Positions 9,448 to 28,875 of a DNA stretch of 61,028 nt are shown one piece after another. The stretch is from a virus (lineage: Duplodnaviria > Caudoviricetes), in the IMG/VR virus record IMGVR_UViG_3300034272_001471, positions 1-61,028 of that record. One strand, given 5' to 3'. Numbering within the stretch: the first letter of the stretch is position 1; each line of letters opens with the position of its first letter. The notes under the pieces were generated by a model that was not told where the DNA came from, did no database searches, and worked only from the letters and a program-made list of their open reading frames with translations. The position numbers and the translations under genes are program-made.

Positions 9448-10218
9448 ATGATCCATCTGTACGCCCGTGTATCTACCGACAAGCAGGAGAACGGCCGGGA
9501 GGCCCAGGCCAGCCGGCTCCTGGCCTGGGTGGGGGACAAGGGCTATCAGTTGTGGGTGGATGAGGATGTCTCAGCCTACCGCAACCGCCTGCCTGACCGG
9601 CCGGCTGGGAAGAAGATGTACGACGCCCTGGAGGAAGGCGACACGGTGGTCATCACCAAGATCGACCGTGCCTTCCGCCGGATGTACGACTTCGCCGTCA
9701 CACGCGAGCAGTGGGAGAAGCTGGGCGTGCAGTTGGTGATCCTGGACCTGCCCGACAATCTGTCGGGTCCGCACGGTAGGTTCTTCCTGTCGATGCTCGT
9801 CGCTGCCGGCGAGCTGGAGTCGGAGATGCACGGGCTCCGTAAGCGGGAGGTCTACGCCCACAAGCAGCGGCAGGGCGTGCCCTATGGTACGCTCCGCCCC
9901 TTCGGCTGGTCGGTCAAGACCACCGCCGCAGGTATGGAGTGGGTCCCCAACGACCGAGAGCGGGCCGCATGCCAGCAGGCCATCGCCCTGAAGGAGCAGG
10001 GCAAGAGCCTGTTTGAAATCGCTATCGCCCTGTCTGCGGCCGGCGTGAAGAAGCCTCGCCGGAGGAAGGATTGCTCCGACTTCTATCACGTGAAAGACAT
10101 TCACCTGATGGTCCGGGCGGCGGCAGCCGGATATCCAAAGATTGCGCGAGAATCTTTGCGAGGGCCCGGCTACGAACAGAGGCTAGCCGAAGCGAGATCC
10201 CGTGGTCGGCCGCTATAG
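9448..10218 (+). CDS. Serine recombinase (resolvase/invertase catalytic domain with C-terminal extension)
   Basis: YARVST..Q catalytic Ser, DEDVSA, RP.G, GDTVVITKIDRAFR, PFGW. Confidence 0.88.
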   Translation: MIHLYARVSTDKQENGREAQASRLLAWVGDKGYQLWVDEDVSAYRNRLPDRPAGKKMYDALEEGDTVVITKIDRAFRRMYDFAVTREQWEKLGVQLVILDLPDNLSGPHGRFFLSMLVAAGELESEMHGLRKREVYAHKQRQGVPYGTLRPFGWSVKTTAAGMEWVPNDRERAACQQAIALKEQGKSLFEIAIALSAAGVKKPRRRKDCSDFYHVKDIHLMVRAAAAGYPKIARESLRGPGYEQRLAEARSRGRPL

Positions 10219-10636
10219 TTCGCAGGGTATGCCCCTTCTGGAATCGGTCCTGCGCTAACGAGTGGTGTTCGTCCAGGTCGCGGATCGCCATGCCCAGGTA
10301 GTCCGGAGACTCCACCACATGGACGATCTCGCCGGCTTCCTCCAGGCTGATCTTGCTGGAGCCGGGCTGGCGGCTGGACTTCTTCACCGCCTTGCACATG
10401 GAGTTGAGGACAGCTCGGGCGAAGTACGCCTTGGGGTATGGCAGTCTCTTCTTGTCGTACGTGCGGGCCGCCTTGGTCAGGGCCAGGAACCCTTCCGCCT
10501 CCAGGTCGGGCAGCATGGCTGCCTTCTGCCAACCGGGGCGTGCCTTCAGGAAGAACCTCGCCAACATCCTGGCGAGCGGAACGTACTCAGTGACTAGGTC
10601 TTGTCGATGCTTTGAGAGTCGCGATCTCTGTCTCAT
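10022..10636 (-). CDS. Sigma-70 family RNA polymerase sigma factor
   Basis: LVTEYVPLARMLA...DLEAEGFLALTKAARTYD (region 2); TLRTIAADHGIS (region 4 HTH). Confidence 0.75.
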   Translation of the reverse strand: MRQRSRLSKHRQDLVTEYVPLARMLARFFLKARPGWQKAAMLPDLEAEGFLALTKAARTYDKKRLPYPKAYFARAVLNSMCKAVKKSSRQPGSSKISLEEAGEIVHVVESPDYLGMAIRDLDEHHSLAQDRFQKGHTLRTIAADHGISLRLASVRSRALAKILAQSLDIRLPPPGPSGECLSRDRSRSNPSSGEASSRRPQTGR

Positions 10637-10811
10637 GTTGGTCCAGCCTGGTTTCATGCTCGGCCAGCGCGTCTCGCAACTCCTGCACCATTGCAGGCAG
10701 ATGCTCCACGGCACTGGCAATCACCGCCACCTTGGCATGGATGCTGAAAGCCCACGGCACCACTGCCGCAGAGGCGCTCACCAGCACCAGCCACATCTCA
10801 ATCTCAGTCAT
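10587..10811 (-). CDS. Small membrane protein with coiled coil (holin-like?)
   Basis: N-terminal hydrophobic helix followed by a heptad-like region. Confidence 0.55.
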   Translation of the reverse strand: MTEIEMWLVLVSASAAVVPWAFSIHAKVAVIASAVEHLPAMVQELRDALAEHETRLDQHETEIATLKASTRPSH

Positions 10812-11270: not shown

Positions 11271-11596
11271 TGGCCGTTCTCACATTTGGTACTACCAACC
11301 CTACGCGGTGGCTGGATGGGGATCGGGCGCGGCGGCGCCGCAGGTGGCGGGGCCGGTGGAGGTGGGGGTGCAGGCGGAGGGTCAGCCGGCCGCTTGCACT
11401 CGCAGTCAGACGGGCAGGGGCACGGAGTTGTGTGCCCATCGCCGTGGACAATGACGCCGTTCCTGCAGGAGCCGCAGCACTTCTTGGCCACGGGCTCAAC
11501 CGCCGCAGTGTGCAGGGTGTAGGCCGCTTCGACCGCCACCCGCTCAGTGAGGATGGGGGCAGCGAACATCGCCAGGAACCAGAGCAAACTATCCAT
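11252..11596 (-). CDS. Secreted Cys/Pro-rich protein
   Basis: Hydrophobic N-terminus; CCGSC...HGDGHTTPCPCPSDCEC; poly-Pro; C-terminal CENGQC. Confidence 0.6.
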   Translation of the reverse strand: MDSLLWFLAMFAAPILTERVAVEAAYTLHTAAVEPVAKKCCGSCRNGVIVHGDGHTTPCPCPSDCECKRPADPPPAPPPPPAPPPAAPPRPIPIQPPRRVGSTKCENGQCVPRT

Positions 11597-13742
11597 GGCG
11601 GAGCAGTCCTATGGTGCCGTAGTCAGGCAGACGCTGCGGTGGGTAGCCGTCGATGGACCCGTACACCCAGCAGTCGCCGTCCTCCACGCAGACATTGAAG
11701 TCGTCGGCCGATGTCAAGATCATCCCCGGCACCCACTCGCCGTACTCCTTGGGCCAGCCCTTCGGCTTCTGGTTCCAATGCCACCAAGAATTGGGGATCA
11801 TCCACACGCGGAACGGGAAGAACTCCTTGGTGTCGTCGTAGCCGGCGATGGCCATGTCATGTTTCCACCCACCCGGCGTGCGGTAGTGGACGCCCTTGGC
11901 GTTGGAGTCCACTGACCAGGACGCATACTGCCCGGAGTGAGCGGCGTACCCATTGAACAGGGCGTCCATCAGGTCAGCCTGCGACCGGACCTGTGTGATC
12001 ACGCCCACCTTATTCTTGCGGCAAAGCTCGCGGACGCTCTCCGGCACACCCGACCGCCCCCAGCGGGCGCCGATGGAGGAGTCGTACTTCGACAGGTCCA
12101 CCACCCCGTCGTACTTGGTGCGAGCCAGGAAGCCAACGTCCCGCTCAAACCTGGACGCCAAGCCCGGGCTCATGCCCTGGCCGCCATGCCCACGCGCCCC
12201 GTAGGTGGGCTCGGTGGCGCCCATGCGGAACCACTCTTCGGGCTCCTTCTTCACCAGGATCTCAACCGCCCTGGTCATGTCCCGGGCATTGCGACTACCG
12301 TGGCTGACGCAGTTATGCACTGCGTACCCGTTGGCGATGAATGCGTGGTCGCACTCCACCTCCAAGCAATAAACCGTTCCAGCAAACGGCGATACCTCAA
12401 TGCTGGCAACCCGCGCCGAGAATCCGCCATCGACCTTTACGGTCAGCGACCTCCGCCCGCCTTCCAATGCTGGTGGTCGGAGCTTCGCTGGAAACAAAGC
12501 GGCTGCGCTGTCGCCGTAGAAATGCACCTCGGAGGCGACCTTTGACCTGCCCCGCGGTTTGCGAGCGACCTCCGTGCATCGGATGCCGCAGGACATGGAC
12601 AAGTATTTCATGTCCCTGACAAGACCGCGGCATACAGATACGCCGCTGGCTCGGCACATCTTGTACTTGGACTTATGCCTAAGTCCGTTTTGCACATGCC
12701 CATCGCCCTCCATCCAGCCGCGCACGCACGCAAGACGAACGGCCGATGGCGAACCAAGGATTTCTTTAGGGACCCGCTTGGTATAGGTGTTCCCCTCGCC
12801 GCACGCCCGATATATCCACCTTGCAAATGGCGCGCACGGAAACTCAACGAACAGACAATTCGGCTTTGATGGCAGCACCCGAATCTTTGCAGGCACTCCG
12901 AGCTTGTCCTGCAAAATGCTGCGCAAGCACTTGGCGATATGAACCTCGTCGCGGCACAGGTTCCACACAAGGTTGGTAGCCGCGCCGCGTTTCGACTTTC
13001 CTGTTGACCCTTCGGCAAGCCATAGGCCGATGACCCACGCCATGTCGGCGTCCAAGGTTACATGCCTGTTGCACTCGTACTTAGCCCCGGAGATCCGCAC
13101 CTTGCCATCGCCGGCTCGGATTCGTCGGGGCTTGGATGCAACCTGCGCAAACTCATTCGGGTCTTGCGAGCATCCATCCTCATTGGCAAGGTCTATTGTG
13201 TGCAGATGCTCGCTGGCAATGCTTGTCGCCGGCAGCAGCACCCGCGATCCCTGGGCCAGTGCGTCGGCCCGAACCCAAGCCCTCTCTGATTCATTCAGCG
13301 GCGAGACGAACAGGTGGTCGGGAGTTGCTACAACAGCGTCCAAGCACCCCTCTGCACGCACGGAAACGACGCTGCCTGTGTACGGCTTGCTGAATGTCGA
13401 AAGCACTCGCCGCTTCCCGCCGAAAGGCGATGCGATAATGTCTCCACTCAGCACATCTTCAATGGCCTTTTCGGTGCCGTCGCCCATTCGCACAAGGGTG
13501 CCGGCAACGAAGCAGTCTCCAGTCGTTTGCTTCTCAGTAAAACATTTGGAGTCCAGCTTCTGTGCGTACTGCCAAAGGAGCGCACGCTTCCCGATGCCGA
13601 CGCCTTTGATGTTCGGTTCAGAGAAGTACTGGTACTTCTGCGTCTCCAGGAACTCCGAGTTGGCGCGGGCGTTGAACGTCCAGCCGGAGAGGCCGTCTTC
13701 GTACGCCCTTAGCAGGGAGTGCGGGGTGTCGAACTCACTCAC
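11589..13742 (-). CDS. Papain-like (C1-type) cysteine peptidase interrupted by an intein
   Basis: Spliced form reads Q-T-T-G-D-C-V-S-H-G (oxyanion Gln, catalytic Cys); later WKHDMAIAGYDD (His) and NSW (Asn); GTG start. Confidence 0.75.
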   Translation of the reverse strand: MSEFDTPHSLLRAYEDGLSGWTFNARANSEFLETQKYQYFSEPNIKGVGIGKRALLWQYAQKLDSKCFTEKQTTGDCFVAGTLVRMGDGTEKAIEDVLSGDIIASPFGGKRRVLSTFSKPYTGSVVSVRAEGCLDAVVATPDHLFVSPLNESERAWVRADALAQGSRVLLPATSIASEHLHTIDLANEDGCSQDPNEFAQVASKPRRIRAGDGKVRISGAKYECNRHVTLDADMAWVIGLWLAEGSTGKSKRGAATNLVWNLCRDEVHIAKCLRSILQDKLGVPAKIRVLPSKPNCLFVEFPCAPFARWIYRACGEGNTYTKRVPKEILGSPSAVRLACVRGWMEGDGHVQNGLRHKSKYKMCRASGVSVCRGLVRDMKYLSMSCGIRCTEVARKPRGRSKVASEVHFYGDSAAALFPAKLRPPALEGGRRSLTVKVDGGFSARVASIEVSPFAGTVYCLEVECDHAFIANGYAVHNCVSHGSRNARDMTRAVEILVKKEPEEWFRMGATEPTYGARGHGGQGMSPGLASRFERDVGFLARTKYDGVVDLSKYDSSIGARWGRSGVPESVRELCRKNKVGVITQVRSQADLMDALFNGYAAHSGQYASWSVDSNAKGVHYRTPGGWKHDMAIAGYDDTKEFFPFRVWMIPNSWWHWNQKPKGWPKEYGEWVPGMILTSADDFNVCVEDGDCWVYGSIDGYPPQRLPDYGTIGLLRHG
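12312..13514 (-). mobile_element. Intein (401 aa) with LAGLIDADG homing endonuclease
   Basis: Starts CFVAGT; block B ATPDHLF; LAGLIDADG-like VIGLWLAEGS and CVRGWMEGDG; ends VYCLEV...AVHN followed by Cys. Confidence 0.92.
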
Positions 13743-14139
13743 TCTGCCGCTCCACTTCCTTGCAGGCAGCGACGATCTGCCCTGCCACCACCTCATCCAC
13801 AGGCACGTTGTCCTGGGTGTAGTGCTTGGCCAGCACCGCTTCGACTGCCTTGTCTAGGCCGGGGTACTTCCCGACGAGGCCGGTCCCGCCAGCGGCCAGC
13901 CGGAGCGCGTCTTGGTAGACGGCGCGCCACGCTGACGTTGTGGTGATCAGCCGGCCTTTGTCCCTGGCCATCACCTCACCGAGCGCTCGGTACAGGCGGC
14001 CCACTGTGGCTCGGTCGGCATAGGAAGCCGACGCTAGAGCCGTGCGTACGGGACCAGTCGCGGCTGGCCGCTGGGCTCCGACAACAAACGACAACGCCAC
14101 CAACGCAACGGCGAGTGCCAGGGGGATGTGCCTATTCAT
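13735..14139 (-). CDS. Secreted or membrane-anchored hypothetical protein
   Basis: Signal-like MNRHIPLALAVALVALSFVVG. Confidence 0.6.
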   Translation of the reverse strand: MNRHIPLALAVALVALSFVVGAQRPAATGPVRTALASASYADRATVGRLYRALGEVMARDKGRLITTTSAWRAVYQDALRLAAGGTGLVGKYPGLDKAVEAVLAKHYTQDNVPVDEVVAGQIVAACKEVERQSE

Positions 14140-18425: not shown

Positions 18426-18612
18426 GTAGGACTAATGCCCTGCCAGGGCCCCTGGCGTGCCGCCTAAAGCCCGGCCGCCCTGGGGCGACCTCCCGCCCGG
18501 CCGGCGGCTGAAGTGCCGCCAGAACGCACAGGCGGGGCATCCACCGCCGCCCCGCGCTGCCTAAGAGCATGGAGCCCATCAGCAGACCGCAGGGCGACGA
18601 TGGATGGTGGCA

Positions 18613-18903
18613 TCACTCCTCGCGGACCAGCGACACGCCGAGCTCTCCGGGCTGTGCCGGGGCGATGGTGTCGGTGGCCACAAACTCCACCACGGCCGGC
18701 TGGCTGACGTTGCCTGCGTCGTCAACGTCCACCAGAGTCAAGACGACGGCAGCGTCCTGCGGCACCGTCACCTCACCGAAGGAGGTGGAGTCCGCACTAA
18801 ACGAAGTCGTCGTCGTTTCGCCGCCGACTGTCACCGACAGCCGCCTGGACACCACATCAGAATCCACAGCCGGCCCGGCCGTTACCGCATAGACCAATCC
18901 CAT
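18613..18903 (-). CDS. Beta-rich (Ig/Fn3-like) hypothetical protein
   Basis: GAGG SD; VDVDDAGNVS...DTIAPAQPG. Confidence 0.6.
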   Translation of the reverse strand: MGLVYAVTAGPAVDSDVVSRRLSVTVGGETTTTSFSADSTSFGEVTVPQDAAVVLTLVDVDDAGNVSQPAVVEFVATDTIAPAQPGELGVSLVREE

Positions 18904-19056
18904 AGAAAACCTCGCTCTGCGGATGAGACAAAAACGCACCGCAAAAGGCTGGCGCATCCGAAACGACAGCCTGCGGAGTTCGCTTGCAATAGATCGTCCA
19001 AACCACATCATGTGCGCTCCCGTCAGTCAGTGGGCGCGACGGGCCGTAGGGCGCGC

Positions 19057-19171
19057 TATACGGCTCCGCATAACGCCGGCGTCCGCCGTTACGCCGCAGG
19101 CTGGCGTTGATTCGGCGGGGTGATATACGGCAGAGGGTGCGATATACGGAACCGCATAAATGTGGTTCTGT
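19057..19171 (+). other. attI-like site: core CGCATAA-ATGTG-GTTCTGT with upstream direct repeats
   Basis: GTT at 19165 without an attC left arm; repeats tatacgg(ct/aa)ccgcataa at 19057 and 19143, gatatacgg at 19122 and 19141. Confidence 0.6.
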
Positions 19172-19173
19172 GG

Positions 19174-19476
19174 CTAGTCGGCAAGCGATTGCCTCAACTG
19201 TGATAGCGCCTTATGCGCTTTCCTTCGCTCTGGTGTGTTCATCGCGACAAGGCATTTGTCACTGAACGGGTCTATCTGCGCCAGGCATGCGCCAATATCG
19301 TCTAGCATCGCGTCCACATCAGGATGATTGTTTCGGAATCGCATGCCGTACATGAATGCCGCAAGTGCCGCCGGAGAGTCGCCCCCGTCCACCCCGCATA
19401 GACGGCAGTCGCGCTGAAACTCACGAAAACCCACAGAACCACGCATTGCATCAGACCGCTCATCAACGTCGCTCAT
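19174..19476 (-). CDS. Cassette 1 hypothetical protein
   Basis: AGGAGG SD and ATG inside the attC1 loop; MSDVDERS. Confidence 0.65.
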   Translation of the reverse strand: MSDVDERSDAMRGSVGFREFQRDCRLCGVDGGDSPAALAAFMYGMRFRNNHPDVDAMLDDIGACLAQIDPFSDKCLVAMNTPERRKAHKALSQLRQSLAD

Positions 19477-19522
19477 TGAATCATCCTCCTTTGTTCGCGG
19501 CTGCTGAATGCAGCCGTTCTCG
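19433..19522 (+). repeat. attC-like site 1 (90 bp)
   Basis: acagAAC cacgcattgcatcagacc...ggctgctgaatgcagcc GTTctcg. Confidence 0.75.
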
Positions 19523-19789
19523 CTACCCACCCGCAACGATCCTCTCGCAATGCTTGCATCGCTGGACTCCCTTTGCGAGCAGGCGAGCGGCGTACTCTGT
19601 CTTTGGTTTCTCGTAGCACCACGCGCCGCAAACAGCGCGGCCGGCGTTGTCGGTGCCGCCAGTGTCAGCAATCTTGATGCAGTGCAGGCGGGTCGCGTAC
19701 CAGCCCGCGAACCACGCGAAAGCACCGTCTGCGGCAGGCAGTTTCTCATGTAGCAGTTTTGGCGATTCGGCAACAGGTTTTTCGGTCAT
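19523..19789 (-). CDS. Cassette 2 hypothetical protein (Cys/His, possible Zn-binding)
   Basis: GGAG SD; LHC...VCG...CKHC. Confidence 0.6.
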   Translation of the reverse strand: MTEKPVAESPKLLHEKLPAADGAFAWFAGWYATRLHCIKIADTGGTDNAGRAVCGAWCYEKPKTEYAARLLAKGVQRCKHCERIVAGG

Positions 19790-19818
19790 GTCGTCTCCAG
19801 TAACATTGTGCCACTCAG

Positions 19819-19867
19819 CGAGAACCAAGCGATGCTGCGGACGAGCCGCTGATCGCAAGCGTTCTGT
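19819..19867 (+). repeat. attC-like site 2 (49 bp, minimal)
   Basis: cgagAAC caagcgatgctgcggacgagccgctgatcgcaagc GTTctgt. Confidence 0.8.
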
Positions 19868-19869
19868 GG

Positions 19870-20064
19870 CTACTTGCTCGCCTTTTTCTTCACGCACCGC
19901 AGCAACGCCTTGAGCCAGTGTGCGTCTCGCTCGGATAGCAGTTGCGGGCCTTTCGACGGGAACGCCTCCATCTTGTGAGCGTGCTGCTCCACACGCTTGA
20001 TGGCGTGCTTCAATGCAGACACCAAGTAGTATCGCTCGTCGTCGTCCAGCGTGACCTTCATCAC
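19870..20064 (-). CDS. Cassette 3, gene b, hypothetical
   Basis: ORF track; stop abuts R' of attC2. Confidence 0.55.
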   Translation of the reverse strand: MMKVTLDDDERYYLVSALKHAIKRVEQHAHKMEAFPSKGPQLLSERDAHWLKALLRCVKKKASK

Positions 20065-20303
20065 TTGCCTCCAGCCTGACGCTCCAGTGCCTCAATCCGC
20101 GCCCGAAGGACTTGCGTTTCTTTTATCAAGTCGCACACCACATCCGTGTCTCGGCTGTACGCGCGAGCGATCGTCCAATCAGTGGCGGCGAGTTGCTGAA
20201 TCCTGTAGAGCGCCCATCCAGAAAACAACAGGGCCGCGACGCTCGCCATCAACGCCACAGAACCAAGCGATGCAACGGACGGCCCTGCTACGTCATGTGT
20301 CAT
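20061..20303 (-). CDS. Cassette 3, gene a, membrane-anchored coiled-coil protein
   Basis: Start inside the attC3 loop; TM helix followed by coiled coil. Confidence 0.6.
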   Translation of the reverse strand: MTHDVAGPSVASLGSVALMASVAALLFSGWALYRIQQLAATDWTIARAYSRDTDVVCDLIKETQVLRARIEALERQAGGK

Positions 20304-20345
20304 GGTGAGTCCTCAGGTGGCCGCCGTTGATCTTCCGTGTTCTCA
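20257..20345 (+). repeat. attC-like site 3 (89 bp)
   Basis: acagAAC caagcgatgcaacggacggcc...ggccgccgttgatcttccgt GTTctca. Confidence 0.8.
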
Positions 20346-20702
20346 TTTCGTCCGTTCAAGCAGCCCGCGAAGAGCCACCACTCGGTCAGGCTCTTTCCCG
20401 CCGTACCACTCAGCGTCCAACTCGCGCCGGATAGCCGCCTCAATCGCCTCACGCTCCTTGTCGGTGAGCCCCCCGAAATCCACCGGGTCCATCGCCTCCC
20501 GCTCCGCGTCGGTGAGCGCTGGCAAGCGGTAGAGCGGAACGATGCCGTGATTCCCAGTTACTGCCTCGTCAATCGCTTTGGCCTCTTCTTCGATGCCATA
20601 GACATCGTAGATTCGCTGGCCGTCAGCAAGCACCACAGCCCACGCGCACGGCTCCCCGTGAGAACCACGCGATGGAATGGACTGCTCATTGGCGTCTGTC
20701 AT
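20343..20702 (-). CDS. Cassette 4 hypothetical protein (AWAVV / PLY / LTDxEREA family)
   Basis: Start inside the attC4 loop; stop overlaps R' of attC3. Confidence 0.7.
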   Translation of the reverse strand: MTDANEQSIPSRGSHGEPCAWAVVLADGQRIYDVYGIEEEAKAIDEAVTGNHGIVPLYRLPALTDAEREAMDPVDFGGLTDKEREAIEAAIRRELDAEWYGGKEPDRVVALRGLLERTK

Positions 20703-20747
20703 GTCTCATGCTCCTGTGTTCGCAGCCATTCATCGCTGGCGTTCTCA
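20659..20747 (+). repeat. attC-like site 4 (89 bp)
   Basis: tgagAAC cacgcgatggaatggactgc...gcagccattcatcgctggc GTTctca. Confidence 0.8.
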
Positions 20748-21080
20748 GTGTGTTCGTTCCAGCAGCCCGTCAATGACCGCCGCGACCTCCACGCTGTCGG
20801 CAAAACGCCCCGCGAAGTAGTCCTCTCGCACTCGCCGCAGCACCTTTCGCAACGCCGTCCGCTCCTCGTCGGTGAGCGTGGGATGCGGCTTCTGCACCAG
20901 CCCGAGCCTGAACAGGGCGGTCACAACATTGAAGGCAAATGGCGATACGCCGAGCTGGTCGCACCAGCGTTCCGCCGCAACTGCCATGGATGACCGCTCC
21001 GAAAACATCGCCTGCCCATGCTCCCCGCGAGAACCAGCGGATGCAGGAGACGGCTCGTTGGTGTCGTTTGATTGGCTCAT
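20745..21080 (-). CDS. Cassette 5 hypothetical protein (LTDEER...GLLER)
   Basis: Start inside the attC5 loop; stop overlaps R' of attC4. Confidence 0.7.
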   Translation of the reverse strand: MSQSNDTNEPSPASAGSRGEHGQAMFSERSSMAVAAERWCDQLGVSPFAFNVVTALFRLGLVQKPHPTLTDEERTALRKVLRRVREDYFAGRFADSVEVAAVIDGLLERTH

Positions 21081-21118
21081 GGTTTGTTCCTCGCCGCTCC
21101 TGATCCTGCGTGTTCTGT
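21028..21118 (+). repeat. attC-like site 5 (91 bp)
   Basis: cgagAAC cagcggatgcaggagacggc...gccgctcctgatcctgcgt GTTctgt. Confidence 0.8.
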
Positions 21119-21120
21119 GA

Positions 21121-21396
21121 CTACTCTGCCTTCCAGCCGTTGTTGATGTACGCCAGCACGGCGTGGAATGCAGCCACCTCGCCAGCCGTCCTAGCGGCGT
21201 CTGCGGTCAACGGCTCGCCGCCTGCCTTTGCGATCAGGCCGATAGTGTCTAGCCGCGTCTCGCGCTTCTCAATCTGCCACCGCATCCAGTCGATGAGGCT
21301 GCCATGCTGCCTGTTCATGGCATTGCAAAAAAACTCCTGCGAGTCGCGCAGACCTGAGATAAGGTTGTCTCGCCGTTTGATTGCGTTGTAGAGCAT
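21121..21396 (-). CDS. Cassette 6 hypothetical protein
   Basis: AGGAGG SD; ORF track. Confidence 0.6.
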   Translation of the reverse strand: MLYNAIKRRDNLISGLRDSQEFFCNAMNRQHGSLIDWMRWQIEKRETRLDTIGLIAKAGGEPLTADAARTAGEVAAFHAVLAYINNGWKAE

Positions 21397-21428
21397 TTCA
21401 ATCCTCCTGTTGTGTCATCCAACAAACC

Positions 21429-21477
21429 ACAGAACCAAGCGATGCTGCGGACGAGCCGCAGATCGCAAGCGTTCTGT
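21429..21477 (+). repeat. attC-like site 6 (49 bp, minimal; near-identical to site 2)
   Basis: acagAAC caagcgatgctgcggacgagccgcagatcgcaagc GTTctgt. Confidence 0.8.
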
Positions 21478-21480
21478 GGG

Positions 21481-21747
21481 CTACTTGTCTTCCGTTGGCA
21501 GGGCTGGAAGCGGCACCCAGTGGGTGACTGCCACTTCATTCCCGCGATCAATCCAGCAATGGCGACTGTATAGCGTGGCCGTGTAGCCGACGAACGGTCG
21601 CCCGCCGGCTGTCAGCGCCGCAACGTGCTGCCCAATATCAGGCAGCCGCTCCGACACCGGAATCCAACCGCCAAGGATCGCTTGACGGTTCGCCACAGAA
21701 CCAGCGGATGCAGGAGACGGCTCGGGTGTGTCGTTCGGTGTAGTCAT
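21481..21747 (-). CDS. Cassette 7 DUF551-like phage protein
   Basis: WIPVSERLP...VTHWVPLPALP; start inside the attC7 loop. Confidence 0.75.
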   Translation of the reverse strand: MTTPNDTPEPSPASAGSVANRQAILGGWIPVSERLPDIGQHVAALTAGGRPFVGYTATLYSRHCWIDRGNEVAVTHWVPLPALPTEDK

Positions 21748-21784
21748 GCCTTCTCCTTGCCGCTCCTGATCCTTCACGTTCTGT
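21695..21784 (+). repeat. attC-like site 7 (90 bp)
   Basis: acagAAC cagcggatgcaggagacggc...gccgctcctgatccttcac GTTctgt. Confidence 0.8.
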
Positions 21785-21787
21785 GGG

Positions 21788-22039
21788 CTACTTGCGAGCC
21801 TCGCGGATCGCCTTTGCCATCGCATCTTGGATACGAGGGTGTATCGGCACAGCCTGCGACTGAATCGCCCTCGGCTTCCTGCCGTAGACCAAAGGCCACA
21901 CTCTCCAGTCGGCTCTGGTGTCTGCGATCAGCATTCGCGCAACAGCATCGGCGTCCTCTTCGCAGCGAAATATCTCATGGTGGTGAAAACGCTCGCCAAC
22001 GCGAACCACTGCATACGCAACGGGGGTGCGATCGCTCAT
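21788..22039 (-). CDS. Cassette 8 hypothetical protein
   Basis: GGAG SD; PVAYAVV...VWPLVY. Confidence 0.6.
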   Translation of the reverse strand: MSDRTPVAYAVVRVGERFHHHEIFRCEEDADAVARMLIADTRADWRVWPLVYGRKPRAIQSQAVPIHPRIQDAMAKAIREARK

Positions 22040-22057
22040 GTCTATACTCCGTTCGCC

Positions 22058-22147
22058 ACAGAACCAGCGGATGCAAGAGACGGCTCGGCACCGTCCTGCG
22101 TGTTGTCGTTGCTCATGTCTCGCCGCTCCTGATCCTTCACGTCCCCA
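22058..22147 (+). repeat. attC-like site 8 (R' degenerate, GTC)
   Basis: acagAAC cagcggatgcaagagacggc...gccgctcctgatccttcac GTCccca. Confidence 0.7.
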
Positions 22148-22156
22148 CTCTCCAAC

Positions 22157-22363
22157 TCATGCCCGATCGGGACTATCGCAGCCAATTTCGCCGCTGCGCG
22201 CCGGGATCGTCTCCCATTTTCGCGCCGGATGTGCCCGCTCGGGACAATGCCTAGCGTTCGCTCGCAGCAGACGAATCTCGTCGTGTGCCGCAAACAGCCG
22301 GATCGACTGATACGCTGCCGACATCCAACCAGCGGCGGCCAGTATCCACGGCACCCAACTCAT
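22157..22363 (-). CDS. Small membrane protein
   Basis: N-terminal hydrophobic helix. Confidence 0.45.
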   Translation of the reverse strand: MSWVPWILAAAGWMSAAYQSIRLFAAHDEIRLLRANARHCPERAHPARKWETIPARSGEIGCDSPDRA

Positions 22364-22857
22364 ACCCGTAATCCCTCGCTTTCCGTCGCTTTTTCAATAC
22401 GACCGGCTCGCCCTAGTAGCCTCCGCACCACCTGCTCGGTGCGATCCATCGCCCGGTAGCAGGCGTCGTCCGCTACTCGCCCCAAGATCTCCCGCTCCTC
22501 GTCTGTGAGTGTGGGCTGGCGGTAGAGCGGGACGACCCTGTCGCACCCGGTGGCCCGGGGCCACGCATCTTTGATCCGAAATGCAATGCTTGTGATCTCG
22601 CCGTCAGGCCGCACCACAGCCCACGCCACTGCCCCCTGTGCAAGATGCCCCCGCCCACCCGTCGCTTCTCCCTTTGTATCGGGCCGCGTGTCGTCTAGGG
22701 GCAAGCCTCCATTCTTGTCGCCGGCCGGTGACTGCCGCTCTGGTGCGCTCCCCGACGTTCCGCCGGAGCCAGAGCCGAATAGAGACTGTTCGATTTGCCC
22801 GCCGTGCTGGACGCCAAGACGGTAGGCGGCAAGCAACGCTGCAGAGTGTTCGGTCAT
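22360..22857 (-). CDS. Hypothetical protein sharing modules with cassette genes
   Basis: AVAWAVV...VVPLYRQPTLTDEERE. Confidence 0.6.
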   Translation of the reverse strand: MTEHSAALLAAYRLGVQHGGQIEQSLFGSGSGGTSGSAPERQSPAGDKNGGLPLDDTRPDTKGEATGGRGHLAQGAVAWAVVRPDGEITSIAFRIKDAWPRATGCDRVVPLYRQPTLTDEEREILGRVADDACYRAMDRTEQVVRRLLGRAGRIEKATESEGLRV

Positions 22858-23135
22858 GGCCACCTCGGGTACAGGAGACAACCTTCAGACTGGTAGCCGT
22901 TCATCACCTCAATGGCCGAGATCCGCGGGAACTCCTTGGACATCTCGGTGGCAATGGCTTCCTTTGGCATGGTGTCGATCCTCGCCCGGTGAGCCGCCAC
23001 CCAGTTGTTCATCGCCGCCATGTCCTCCGAGCAGTCAGGGCCGGAGGCTTGGCGGTCAACCCAGGTGCGGATCACGTAGTTGAACGTGCGGAACTTCAGG
23101 ATGTTTTCCCACACCGCCTGCTTGCCGAACATCAT
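22854..23135 (-). CDS. Hypothetical protein
   Basis: ORF track; coupled overlap. Confidence 0.55.
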   Translation of the reverse strand: MMFGKQAVWENILKFRTFNYVIRTWVDRQASGPDCSEDMAAMNNWVAAHRARIDTMPKEAIATEMSKEFPRISAIEVMNGYQSEGCLLYPRWP

Positions 23136-27731: not shown

Positions 27732-27931
27732 TTGTACACCTCCGCTTGTGAAAAAGCCCATCCGTGGGCACATGCCATCCTTGTGTTTAGCGCCCGCCCC
27801 GGAACGCTTCGCGAAACTGTCCAACGACCAGAAGGCCGAGACAGAGCTCCCACCTGTGCAGCCAGATGCACAGGGTCAGGCCAGCCAGATAGGCGACCTT
27901 TAAGATTGGGGCGGCCGATTCGCAGAGGGCG

Positions 27932-27966
27932 ATGAGGCGGCTGCTAACCAACTGAGCTAGCTGCCC
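27932..27966 (-). pseudogene. tRNA 5'-half remnant (CAT anticodon, Met/Ile2-like); candidate attP
   Basis: Minus strand GGGCAGC-TAGCTCAGTTGGTTAG-CAGCCGCCTCAT; no T-arm. Confidence 0.55.
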
Positions 27967-28047
27967 GGATGTTTGACCGTACCGCTTTTGCGGGGGGTTC
28001 CCACCGTGACGAAGGCTGCTAGAAAAGCCCCTCTCTTGAGGTGCAAC

Positions 28048-28875
28048 ATGACGCTCATCGACTTGGCCCGGCAGTACCACAACAGAGTCGGCGGATCGCC
28101 CGGCTACCTGGAGCAGTTGGAGTGCTTCGTTCGACGGCTTCCATGGAAGGCCGCTGAACTCTCTCCAGACAGGATCGATGCCTACCTGACTGACGCGCTG
28201 CGACATTTGGCTCCCTCCACTGTCTGCAACCACCGAAAAATGCTGCGTTGCCTGCTGCATTTCGCCGCCGAGACGCGGCTTGTGGACGGCAATATACTCC
28301 GGCCTCTGCGAAAGGTCAAGCGAAATCCGCCGAACCCAAGAGCGTGGAGTCACACGGAGATTCGGTGCCTTTTGGATGTCGCCGCCAAATTGGTTGGTGG
28401 TCGGAAGTGCCCGCGGAGCCTGCTCGCTAGGGCATGGATTCTGGTGGGCTACAGCACCGGGCTGCGACTTGATGACTTGCTGTCGATTCGCCATGACCAA
28501 ATCCGTGGCCAGAGGTTGTGCCCAAGCCAACGCAAGGTCGGCCATCCGCATGTCTGCTGGCTGGATGACCTCGCCATGGCAGCCATACGCGAGCTGCCAG
28601 TGCTTGGGCCGCGTATCTTTGGCGATCTGATCTGCCGAGACAAGGCCATGGCCATGATGCGGCAGATTGTCCGGACGGCCGGCCTGCCTGGATCAACGAA
28701 GTTTCTGCGGCGCAGCGGTGCAACCTACTGCGAGATCGCCGGCAAGGACGCCAGTGGACACTTAGGACACCGGACGCCCAACATGAAAGCCTACTACGTT
28801 GACAGGCTCTTGCTGGCCGAAGAAAAGAAGCAGGAGCCGACGACGCTGCCCCTAGTTCTGGCGGACCAGCCCTAG
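28048..28875 (+). CDS. Tyrosine recombinase/integrase
   Basis: TGLR, QRK, KFLRRSGAT (HxxR variant), LGH, YY; GAGG SD. Confidence 0.85.
   Translation: MTLIDLARQYHNRVGGSPGYLEQLECFVRRLPWKAAELSPDRIDAYLTDALRHLAPSTVCNHRKMLRCLLHFAAETRLVDGNILRPLRKVKRNPPNPRAWSHTEIRCLLDVAAKLVGGRKCPRSLLARAWILVGYSTGLRLDDLLSIRHDQIRGQRLCPSQRKVGHPHVCWLDDLAMAAIRELPVLGPRIFGDLICRDKAMAMMRQIVRTAGLPGSTKFLRRSGATYCEIAGKDASGHLGHRTPNMKAYYVDRLLLAEEKKQEPTTLPLVLADQP

Follow-up and report, generated by a model that had tools for sequence, protein, structure and literature searches.

The virus record IMGVR_UViG_3300034272_001471 was analysed over its entire length of 61,028 bp (hereafter the window), for which CheckV reports a completeness of 100%. 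Among its annotated products are the large terminase, the portal and the proteins of head and tail, besides a helicase, a nuclease of the HNH type, the recombinase ERF and a PD-(D/E)XK protein; this gene content therefore identifies a tailed phage, in which almost every gene from 11.5 kb onwards lies on the - strand. The subject of the present analysis is an integron-like array at positions 19,052-22,149, which consists of an attI-like site followed by eight attC-type sites (U1 to U8), every one on the + strand, and of nine cassette open reading frames (ORFs; C1, C2, C3a, C3b and C4 to C8), all on the - strand and thus opposite to the strand of the sites (Table 1).

The sites were located with a covariance model (R1), built on 57 related sites and run on the window with its filters off, which returned exactly eight matches, all on the + strand, with E-values from 4e-21 to 1.6e-10, the next best match having an E-value of 1.8. 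A scan of positions 18,500-23,000 against Rfam at E <= 1 gave 0 matches. The sites fall into two length classes of about 53-62 nt and 89-96 nt, with loops of 5 nt in U2 and U6 and of ~38 nt in U1, U3, U4, U5, U7 and U8. The attC sites of integrons have an overall length of about 57-141 bp with a variable terminal structure. Examples given in PMC5027507 measure 57-70 and 133 bp. The right box of the last site, U8, reads GTC rather than GTT (22141-22143) and marks the join to the phage backbone.

The sites share a single architecture. Read along the + strand, a site opens with (CCAC)AGAAC and five unpaired nucleotides, followed by GAT, a bulged G, six base pairs, a bulged A and about four further base pairs; beyond the loop come the complementary arm, six unpaired nucleotides and GTTCT(GTGG). 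The unpaired spacer, an internal loop of 5 nt and 6 nt, is present in seven of the eight window folds and in an alignment of related sites (A1). In A1 the inner helix is paired in 99.4% of the cells, with changes on both sides at 12 of its 13 pairs, and sliding by one to three columns lowers the pairing over the tested structure from 90% to 33-51%; columns 15-24 of the alignment had been pre-selected for pairing, while columns 26-29 were not used for picking sequences. The outer-helix columns are invariant in A1, but the A1 sites were chosen on AGAAC/GTTCT. The AAC and GTT triplets, of which AAC closes the R'' box and GTT opens the R' box, stand in the expected place in 341 of 362 sites, and the four flank positions belonging to one and the same site pair with each other in just 47% of the cells of the alignment.

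Table 1. Coordinates of the array features and of the tyrosine recombinase candidate in the window (SD, Shine-Dalgarno sequence; R1, score with the covariance model)
Feature	Position	Strand	Remarks
attI-like site	19052..19172	+	left end of array; three copies of G(C/T)G(C/A)TATACGG at 19052-19063, 19120-19130 and 19138-19149
attI-like site, 3' part		+	after the repeats AACCGCATAAATGTG, then GTT (19165-19167), then CTGTG
C1	19174..19476	-	100 aa; start in U1 loop; without family match
U1 (attC)	19431..19524	+	long class; ATT/AAT first-helix variant; loop contains SD AAGGAGG and C1 ATG (19476); R1 77.9 bits, E 2.3e-19
C2	19523..19789	-	88 aa; start 27 nt beyond short site U2
U2 (attC)	19817..19869	+	short class; 5-nt loop without ATG; R1 46.2 bits, E 1.6e-10
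C3a + C3b	19870-20064, 20061-20303	-	two-gene cassette; ATGA overlap; C3b start in U3 loop
U3 (attC)	20255..20347	+	long class; C3b ATG (20303) in loop; R1 84.2 bits
C4	20343..20702	-	119 aa; start in U4 loop
U4 (attC)	20657..20749	+	long class; C4 ATG (20702) in loop; R1 83.7 bits; RNA fold z -2.8
C5	20745..21080	-	111 aa; start in U5 loop
U5 (attC)	21026..21120	+	long class; C5 ATG (21080) in loop; R1 76.9 bits
C6	21121..21396	-	91 aa; start 30 nt beyond short site U6
U6 (attC)	21427..21479	+	short class; 5-nt loop without ATG; 98% identity to U2; R1 51 bits; fold z -5.0 as RNA, -6.5 as DNA
C7	21481..21747	-	88 aa; DUF551 (PF04448, E 2.1e-8; phrog_60); start in U7 loop
U7 (attC)	21693..21786	+	long class; SD AAGGAG and C7 ATG (21747) in loop; R1 81.8 bits; fold z -3.1
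C8	21788..22039	-	83 aa; ATG at 22039, outside U8 loop
U8 (attC)	22056..22149	+	last site; outer-helix mismatches; R1 64.4 bits
Xer-like tyrosine recombinase	28048..28872	+	sole tyrosine recombinase candidate in the phage; 6 kb from array

The cassette genes are fitted closely between the sites. As had been noted in the original prediction, their stops lie close to the preceding R' box, each beginning 1-6 nt past the GTT of the left-hand site: as GTTCTCA in C4 and C5 (20339-20345 and 20741-20747), as GTTCTCGCTA in C2 (19516-19525) and as GTTCTGTGG(G)CTA or GTTCTGTGACTA in C1, C3a, C6, C7 and C8. The six sites of ~93 nt (U1, U3, U4, U5, U7 and U8) carry a Shine-Dalgarno sequence (SD) and an ATG in the loop, and these loop ATGs open C1, C3b, C4, C5 and C7 in five of them. 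The ATG in the loop of U8 (22116) opens an ORF of 24 codons only (22042-22116), the stop of which (22042-22044) lies 2 nt before the ATG of C8. Thus, the six leader peptides that the original prediction had quoted from the ~90-bp sites are all present, and five of them would form the N-termini of cassette products as proposed, while the sixth belongs to a short upstream ORF. In C3b the leader is followed directly by a hydrophobic stretch, and in C7 the DUF551 domain starts at residue 27, after the attC-encoded leader. The leader and early sequence of C4 match members of a 28-member cassette family of the related phage loci described below. C4, C5 and an ORF lying just to the right of the array and outside it (22360-22881, - strand) are paralogues with a ..LTD(A/E)ERE.. 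region, for which a search of Pfam and PHROG gave no match.

Related loci were collected by a scan of IMG/VR with a gapped pattern derived from the repeat, which yielded at least 120 contig stretches; the locus counts rest on the matches listed. At E <= 0.001, R1 identified 363 sites in the window and in 115 IMG/VR loci among the matches listed, 355 of them outside the window. The sites occupy one strand in every source except one (L059), with a maximum of 15 sites per locus. A detector based on regular expressions recovered 270 of 362 model sites together with 53 extras, and the counts were taken from R1 instead.

Starts within the attC loop are common in this collection. On the - strand, 200 of the 245 long sites at a sufficient distance from a contig end have a loop ATG opening an ORF that extends at least 30 codons past the site, and 170 of these 200 ATGs are preceded at 3-16 nt by GGAG, GAGG or AGGA as an SD. 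At the R'' box, 179 of the 200 leaders are read in the phase GGT TCT, giving ..ASAGS.., 20 in the phase giving ..LLHPLVL.. and one in the third phase. Second-frame ORFs (..RLLHPLVL..) were observed in L004, L039, L055 and others, the arm being open in all three frames. The cassette products of the phage loci include a DUF551 protein, an N6/N4 methyltransferase, a C5 methyltransferase and many proteins of unknown function; a single protein family may be found with several leader types, and a single leader type ahead of unrelated proteins. In the C5-methyltransferase cassette the Pfam domain begins at residue 19, directly after a leader of 16 residues, and from the loop ATG up to codon 39, already past motif I, there is neither ATG nor GTG nor TTG; since no other start codon precedes motif I, the start of this cassette gene must be in attC. 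These data argue for the suggestion made from the window alone that the recombination site supplies the start of translation. Methyltransferase cassettes of the C5 and N6/N4 types (L087:191-1258 and L030:7970-8713) were also observed to carry the leader MTHDVAGPSVAS(A/L)GS, as does C3b of the window.

Examination of the bases next to the boxes indicates how the cassettes are delimited. Only AAC and GTT are invariant, the bases following GTT being variable (CTCA, CTGT, ATGC, AGCC and others). The flank after the GTT of one site pairs with the flank before the AAC of the next site over a mean of 4.69 contiguous nucleotides, reaching 3 nt or more in 216 of 236 adjacent pairs, whereas the flanks of a single site pair over a mean of 2.12 nt (at least 3 nt in 107 of 341) and those of sites with one site skipped over a mean of 1.85 nt. 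Flank pairing across neighbours is the signature of hybrid sites in integron arrays, each cassette having both R-box halves with which its attC would be closed in a circle. In 50 of the 78 arrays with sufficient sequence on the left, a left half-site, consisting of GTT and the complement of the flank of the first site, lies one cassette-length upstream, and ahead of it stand two or three TTATNCGG-like repeats as well as a CCGCA(G/T)AAA(C/T)(A/G)(C/T)(T/G)G stretch. A right half-site was found in only 4 of 72 arrays, and those four resemble truncated full sites; five arrays, that of the window included, terminate in a site without GTT.

Homology between shared cassettes breaks at GTT on the left side. 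Where near-identical cassettes occur in different neighbourhoods, the alignment starts exactly at the left GTT and, in the clearest cases, ends exactly at the right GTT. Shared cassettes in non-syntenic positions gave 17 left breakpoints, of which 15 coincide with the GTT of the left site and none with its AAC, two being ambiguous. Between 39 and 98% of the sampled array words are contained in 24 lake or freshwater metagenome runs, none of which is an RNA run, and in four lake runs there are contigs with joints between window positions at attC boxes: from 19519 to 22155 in two runs (the R' box of U1 with a point shortly beyond U8, four letters at the joint being unaligned), from 19865 to 20655 in three runs, and backwards from the right arm of U8 to the GTT of U1, U2 or U3.

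The geometry of the bulges also speaks for + as the top strand of attC. Cleavage has been placed on the bottom strand, in the AAC of the R' box (Nivina et al. 2016; PMC5027507), and the extrahelical bases described there, such as G16 and T23 of attCaadA7, are found close to L'', on the arm facing the AAC triplet. In the present sites, read on the - strand, AAC occupies the 5' arm and two single-base bulges, 7 nt apart (A1 columns 18 and 25), the 3' arm, which is the geometry published for the bottom strand (PMC5027507). Half-sites, breakpoints, bulge geometry and the bacterial arrays discussed below are four agreeing lines that identify the + strand, from sequence, as the top strand of attC, and with all nine ORFs of the window on the - strand they uphold the initial observation that genes and sites are of opposite polarity.

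The same sites occur in bacterial genomes. A stricter pattern gave at least 119 stretches in a genome collection; among the 80 listed, 55 have titles of Planctomycetota lineages by hand count. The other 25 are metagenome-assembled genomes (MAGs) titled Cyanobacteria, Acidobacteriota, Bacteroidota, Proteobacteria and others, including L139, L154, L158, L165, L184 and L201, and may be mis-binned phage contigs or further hosts. The integron integrase model TIGR02249 scored above its NCBIfam cut-off in 26 of 38 genomes with Planctomycetota titles, with up to 465 bits. In seven of 12 intI loci R1 sites follow directly downstream of intI and share its strand, and in six of these seven the stretch from intI to the first site contains an attI with the phage-type motif. 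It follows that the sites are attCs of Planctomycetota integrons and that the array of the phage stands on an attI of the host type without intI. Planctomycetota integrons with intI co-directional to the array form what we take to be the 'inverted integrase' group.

The chromosomal integrons thus share the attC family and the attI motif with the phage arrays, but they possess their own intI, directly upstream and on the same strand, and their ORFs, like intI, are on the + strand of the sites. The comparison was made on distinct sequences only, at an equal threshold and with 16 bacterial MAG loci; a short MAG contig with phage-type behaviour (L150) was counted apart. A test based on the strand of the longest ORF (136 vs 100) is uninformative in DNA of 62% G+C, and open-frame coverage was used instead. 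Cassette bodies open on the bottom strand only number 75 in phages and four in bacteria, those open on the top strand only eight and 28, those open on both strands 103 and six, and those open on neither strand 28 and 26. A loop ATG with a long ORF is present in 178 of 220 long sites in phages and in eight of 76 in bacteria, where the loops are mostly without ATG. The cassette protein pools barely overlap: only six bacterial loci have a cassette protein in common with the phage set, and the best matches resemble phage-type contigs. With the ORFs of bacterial arrays of the same attC family on the opposite strand and their loops mostly empty, the distinct class of cassettes that had been postulated is borne out.

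The array is best explained as an integron-type array of a tailed lake-water phage that bears attI and lacks intI, in which attC would double as ribosome-binding site and N-terminal leader; we hold this reading, which rests on sequence comparison, to be about 85% probable. With two or more attC sites and no nearby intI, the array is a CALIN (an attC cluster without a neighbouring integron integrase) as defined in PMC9892861. It has at its head a putative attI, recognised by likeness to the attI of Planctomycetota; the intI that stands beside attI in a complete integron is missing, and the ORFs are not located, as in a canonical cassette, on the top strand between R' and their own attC. In the mechanism proposed, each cassette ends, on the + (top) strand, in a folded attC, and crossover takes place at GTT as in integrons, which assigns the bases after each GTT to the next cassette. 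The bottom-strand genes run with the - strand operon of the phage. The 3' part of the loop, the L'' arm, the spacer and the R'' box would be translated as a leader of 12-20 residues, usually ..(P)S(P)ASAGS(x), and a cassette would be a complete promoterless unit, nearly all coding, with its own ribosome-binding site. In the messenger RNA, which has the sense of the bottom strand, the predicted attC fold shows the SD and the AUG unpaired in the apical loop, a display that would make initiation independent of the upstream cassette.

Several observations weigh against this reading. The integron integrase model TIGR02249 has no match in the complete phage record. The 7-bp box consensus RYYYAAC / GTTRRRY (PMC5027507) is not followed by these sites, in which the four bases after GTT are CTCA in 123 cases, CTGT in 77 and CTGC in 22, with ATGC (18) and AGCC (4) nearer to the consensus. 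The bulged bases on the - strand are C and T, with C where attCaadA7 and VCR2 have G (PMC5027507). Among the 245 long sites, 31 lack an ATG in the loop and in 14 the loop ORF is only a short one; with 20 of the 200 leaders in another frame, the leader peptide itself is therefore not conserved. The breakpoints on the right side of shared cassette bodies are divided, ~8 being located at the left arm of the right-hand site or within it and ~7 at its GTT (three by strict thresholds and four more by relaxed ones). Breakpoints in the arm, together with the mixing of leaders and gene bodies, imply that the attC interior is often exchanged between gene bodies, for which recombination at R'' and homologous exchange in the conserved arms are both possibilities; homologous recombination in the conserved arms could explain a part of the shuffling. 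Further, short-read contigs break at repeats, so some of the lake joints may be chimeric and lend support rather than proof.

As regards the enzyme, the same types of attC and attI adjoin intI in Planctomycetota genomes, and the host integrase, acting during infection, is for this reason the most likely catalyst on the phage array. The only tyrosine recombinase candidate of the phage was identified through homology to a clear recombinase from a further phage with an array (28% identity over 247 aa, E 4.6e-17). It scores 14.6 bits with PF00589, below the Pfam cut-off, and 21-28 bits with the XerC, XerD and XerA models, its relatives reaching 55 bits, all far under the cut-offs; a sequence search of the PDB with the window recombinase gave 0 matches. 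Of 50 viral records with an array, 26 have a gene of this diverged Xer-like type, as do eight of the 10 whose completeness reaches 90% or more; in the cases checked it is not next to the array, and its product is a candidate catalyst only, as an alternative to the host integrase. In the window it is a + strand gene surrounded by - strand genes, and it overlaps with ORF 27787-28551 on the - strand. Phage recombinases were also considered as integron integrases and rejected, the IntI-type model giving 18.7 bits for one of nine only.

Other explanations of the array were weighed against the same evidence. The hairpins could be elements of the RNA only, such as RNase III-type sites, mRNA stabilisers or translational operators, with no role in DNA recombination. 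They do lie between small co-transcribed genes and are built of a lower and an upper stem with an internal loop, and the sense-strand RNA folds of the units are stable (-22 to -40 kcal/mol, z reaching as low as -5). Repeated hairpins between small accessory genes, associated with gene shuffling or mRNA processing, are known as the promoter-early stem-loops of T4-type phages and the early RNase III hairpins of T7; to our knowledge these have no relation to an integrase, attI, AAC/GTT boxes or hybrid flanks. However, an RNA stem would run through its own flanks, while the flanks here pair with the neighbouring site; the attI-like half-site is one-sided, cassette homology breaks exactly at GTT, no Rfam model matches, and the same element is found beside true bacterial intI with the genes on the other strand. 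A role confined to the RNA is accordingly scarcely credible, and an added RNA role of the hairpins beside recombination may exist. Nearly as improbable is a reversed polarity, in which the - strand would be the top strand, the genes would be canonical and a cassette would comprise a gene body and the start of the next gene. The AAC...GTT boxes are symmetric, the ~8 right breakpoints on the AAC side of the right site would be accommodated, and so would the finding of one leader type before unrelated proteins and of one protein family with several leader types; yet the half-sites are on the left on the + strand (50 of 78 against 4 of 72), end sites lose the right box and not the left, no left breakpoint is at the AAC of the left site, bulges opposite AAC occur on the - strand only, and bacterial intI and ORFs follow the + strand of the sites.

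The sites might instead be relics of a captured bacterial integron that now serve as substrates for homologous recombination between co-infecting phages, without site-specific recombination. The absence of intI from the phage, the conserved arms of ~20 nt common to many sites, the breakpoints inside arms and the ERF and PD-(D/E)XK proteins encoded by the phage would fit such an origin. Against it, compensatory changes maintain the structure in 355 sites from 115 loci, the phage cassette pool is its own, with a cassette protein shared by only six bacterial loci, and the flank complementarity across each cassette, which a circular cassette intermediate alone requires, is kept; we regard relics as unlikely. 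The remaining explanation accepts the sites as attCs and places the true starts downstream, the loop ATGs belonging to upstream ORFs that open the hairpin for translational coupling. It describes U8 and 13 other long sites, where the loop ORF ends 0-29 codons past the site and a separate start follows, as well as the genes of the short class, which start downstream, and it can draw on the two leader frames (179 and 20 of 200) and on the precedent of short attC ORFs and ORF-11 of attI1 (PMC8876359). This explanation is rather more improbable than the relics, because 200 of 245 long sites have a loop ORF that continues in the frame of the gene over 30 codons or more, Pfam domains start 2-10 residues after the leader, and the C5-methyltransferase cassette offers no ATG, GTG or TTG from the loop ATG to codon 39.

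A bolder version of the preferred reading, that of an intI-less array with genes starting in attC, holds that the phages run an antisense cassette economy of their own, with the attC interior as a portable initiation and leader module that could be joined in frame to any gene body at R'', where 179 of 200 leaders have the codon phase GGT TCT; this is doubtful, though it deserves to be entertained. Recombination would in that case use both boxes, whole cassettes moving by R' and modules being swapped by R'', which would offer a natural route to new cassettes and N-terminal fusions. The catalyst might be the phage Xer-like recombinase, or host IntI with a relaxed choice of strand given the bulged C in place of G.

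Reverse cassettes are a minority in the chromosomal integrons of Vibrio, being mostly toxin-antitoxin pairs with their own promoters and starts outside attC. The phage array resembles them in its bottom-strand ORFs and differs in that this orientation is the rule for all cassettes, which are promoterless and start inside attC. In cultured phages 17 CALINs have been described, and of six phage attCs tested IntI1 recombined five (Qi et al. 2023; PMC9892861). They are alike in being attC arrays without intI, in virulent and temperate phages, and in having DNA methyltransferase cassettes, but their cassettes are oriented as in typical bacterial arrays and here they are antisense; section 3.4 of that paper makes no mention of attI, of genes starting in attC or of Planctomycetota phages. 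Against those 17 CALINs stand here at least 116 contigs with an attI-bearing array and antisense genes. A full-text literature search found no description of antisense phage cassettes or of genes starting in attC, although the supplementary tables of PMC9892861 may list ORF orientations. ORF-11 and ORF-17 of attI1 and short attC ORFs help to translate the next cassette (PMC8876359); they too combine a recombination site with an SD and an ATG that aid translation, and the U8 ORF and C8 resemble such coupling. According to the account in PMC8876359 those ORFs are separate small peptides on a top-strand mRNA, whereas the phage attC is read in a bottom-strand mRNA and usually encodes the N-terminus of the cassette protein itself.

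A blastn search with the array against 50,697 cultured phage records gave 0 matches, and a tblastn search with the helicase found distant relatives only, with a top identity of 36%; the host is probably a member of the Planctomycetota. Elsewhere in the window, an ORF of 735 aa (11589-13796, - strand) contains an intein splicing domain and a LAGLIDADG domain. A serine recombinase gene (9448-10218, + strand; Resolvase, 95 bits) overlaps by ~200 nt with an ORF resembling sigma-70 region 2 (10022-10720, - strand), and one of the two listed starts is probably wrong.

In the usual view, integron cassettes carry no promoter, their genes are read from the side of attI, and attC is a non-coding tail. 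The lake phages appear to use the same recombination grammar reversed, with attC as recombination site, ribosome-binding site and N-terminal leader, so that the structure of attC would be compatible with coding. The finding points to a phage-specific pool of shuffled accessory genes, comprising DNA methyltransferases, DUF551 proteins and many products of unknown function, and suggests that phages exploit the host integrase by means of a borrowed attI. It also provides material for two questions in integron biology, namely the strand choice of the integrase and the origin of new cassettes.

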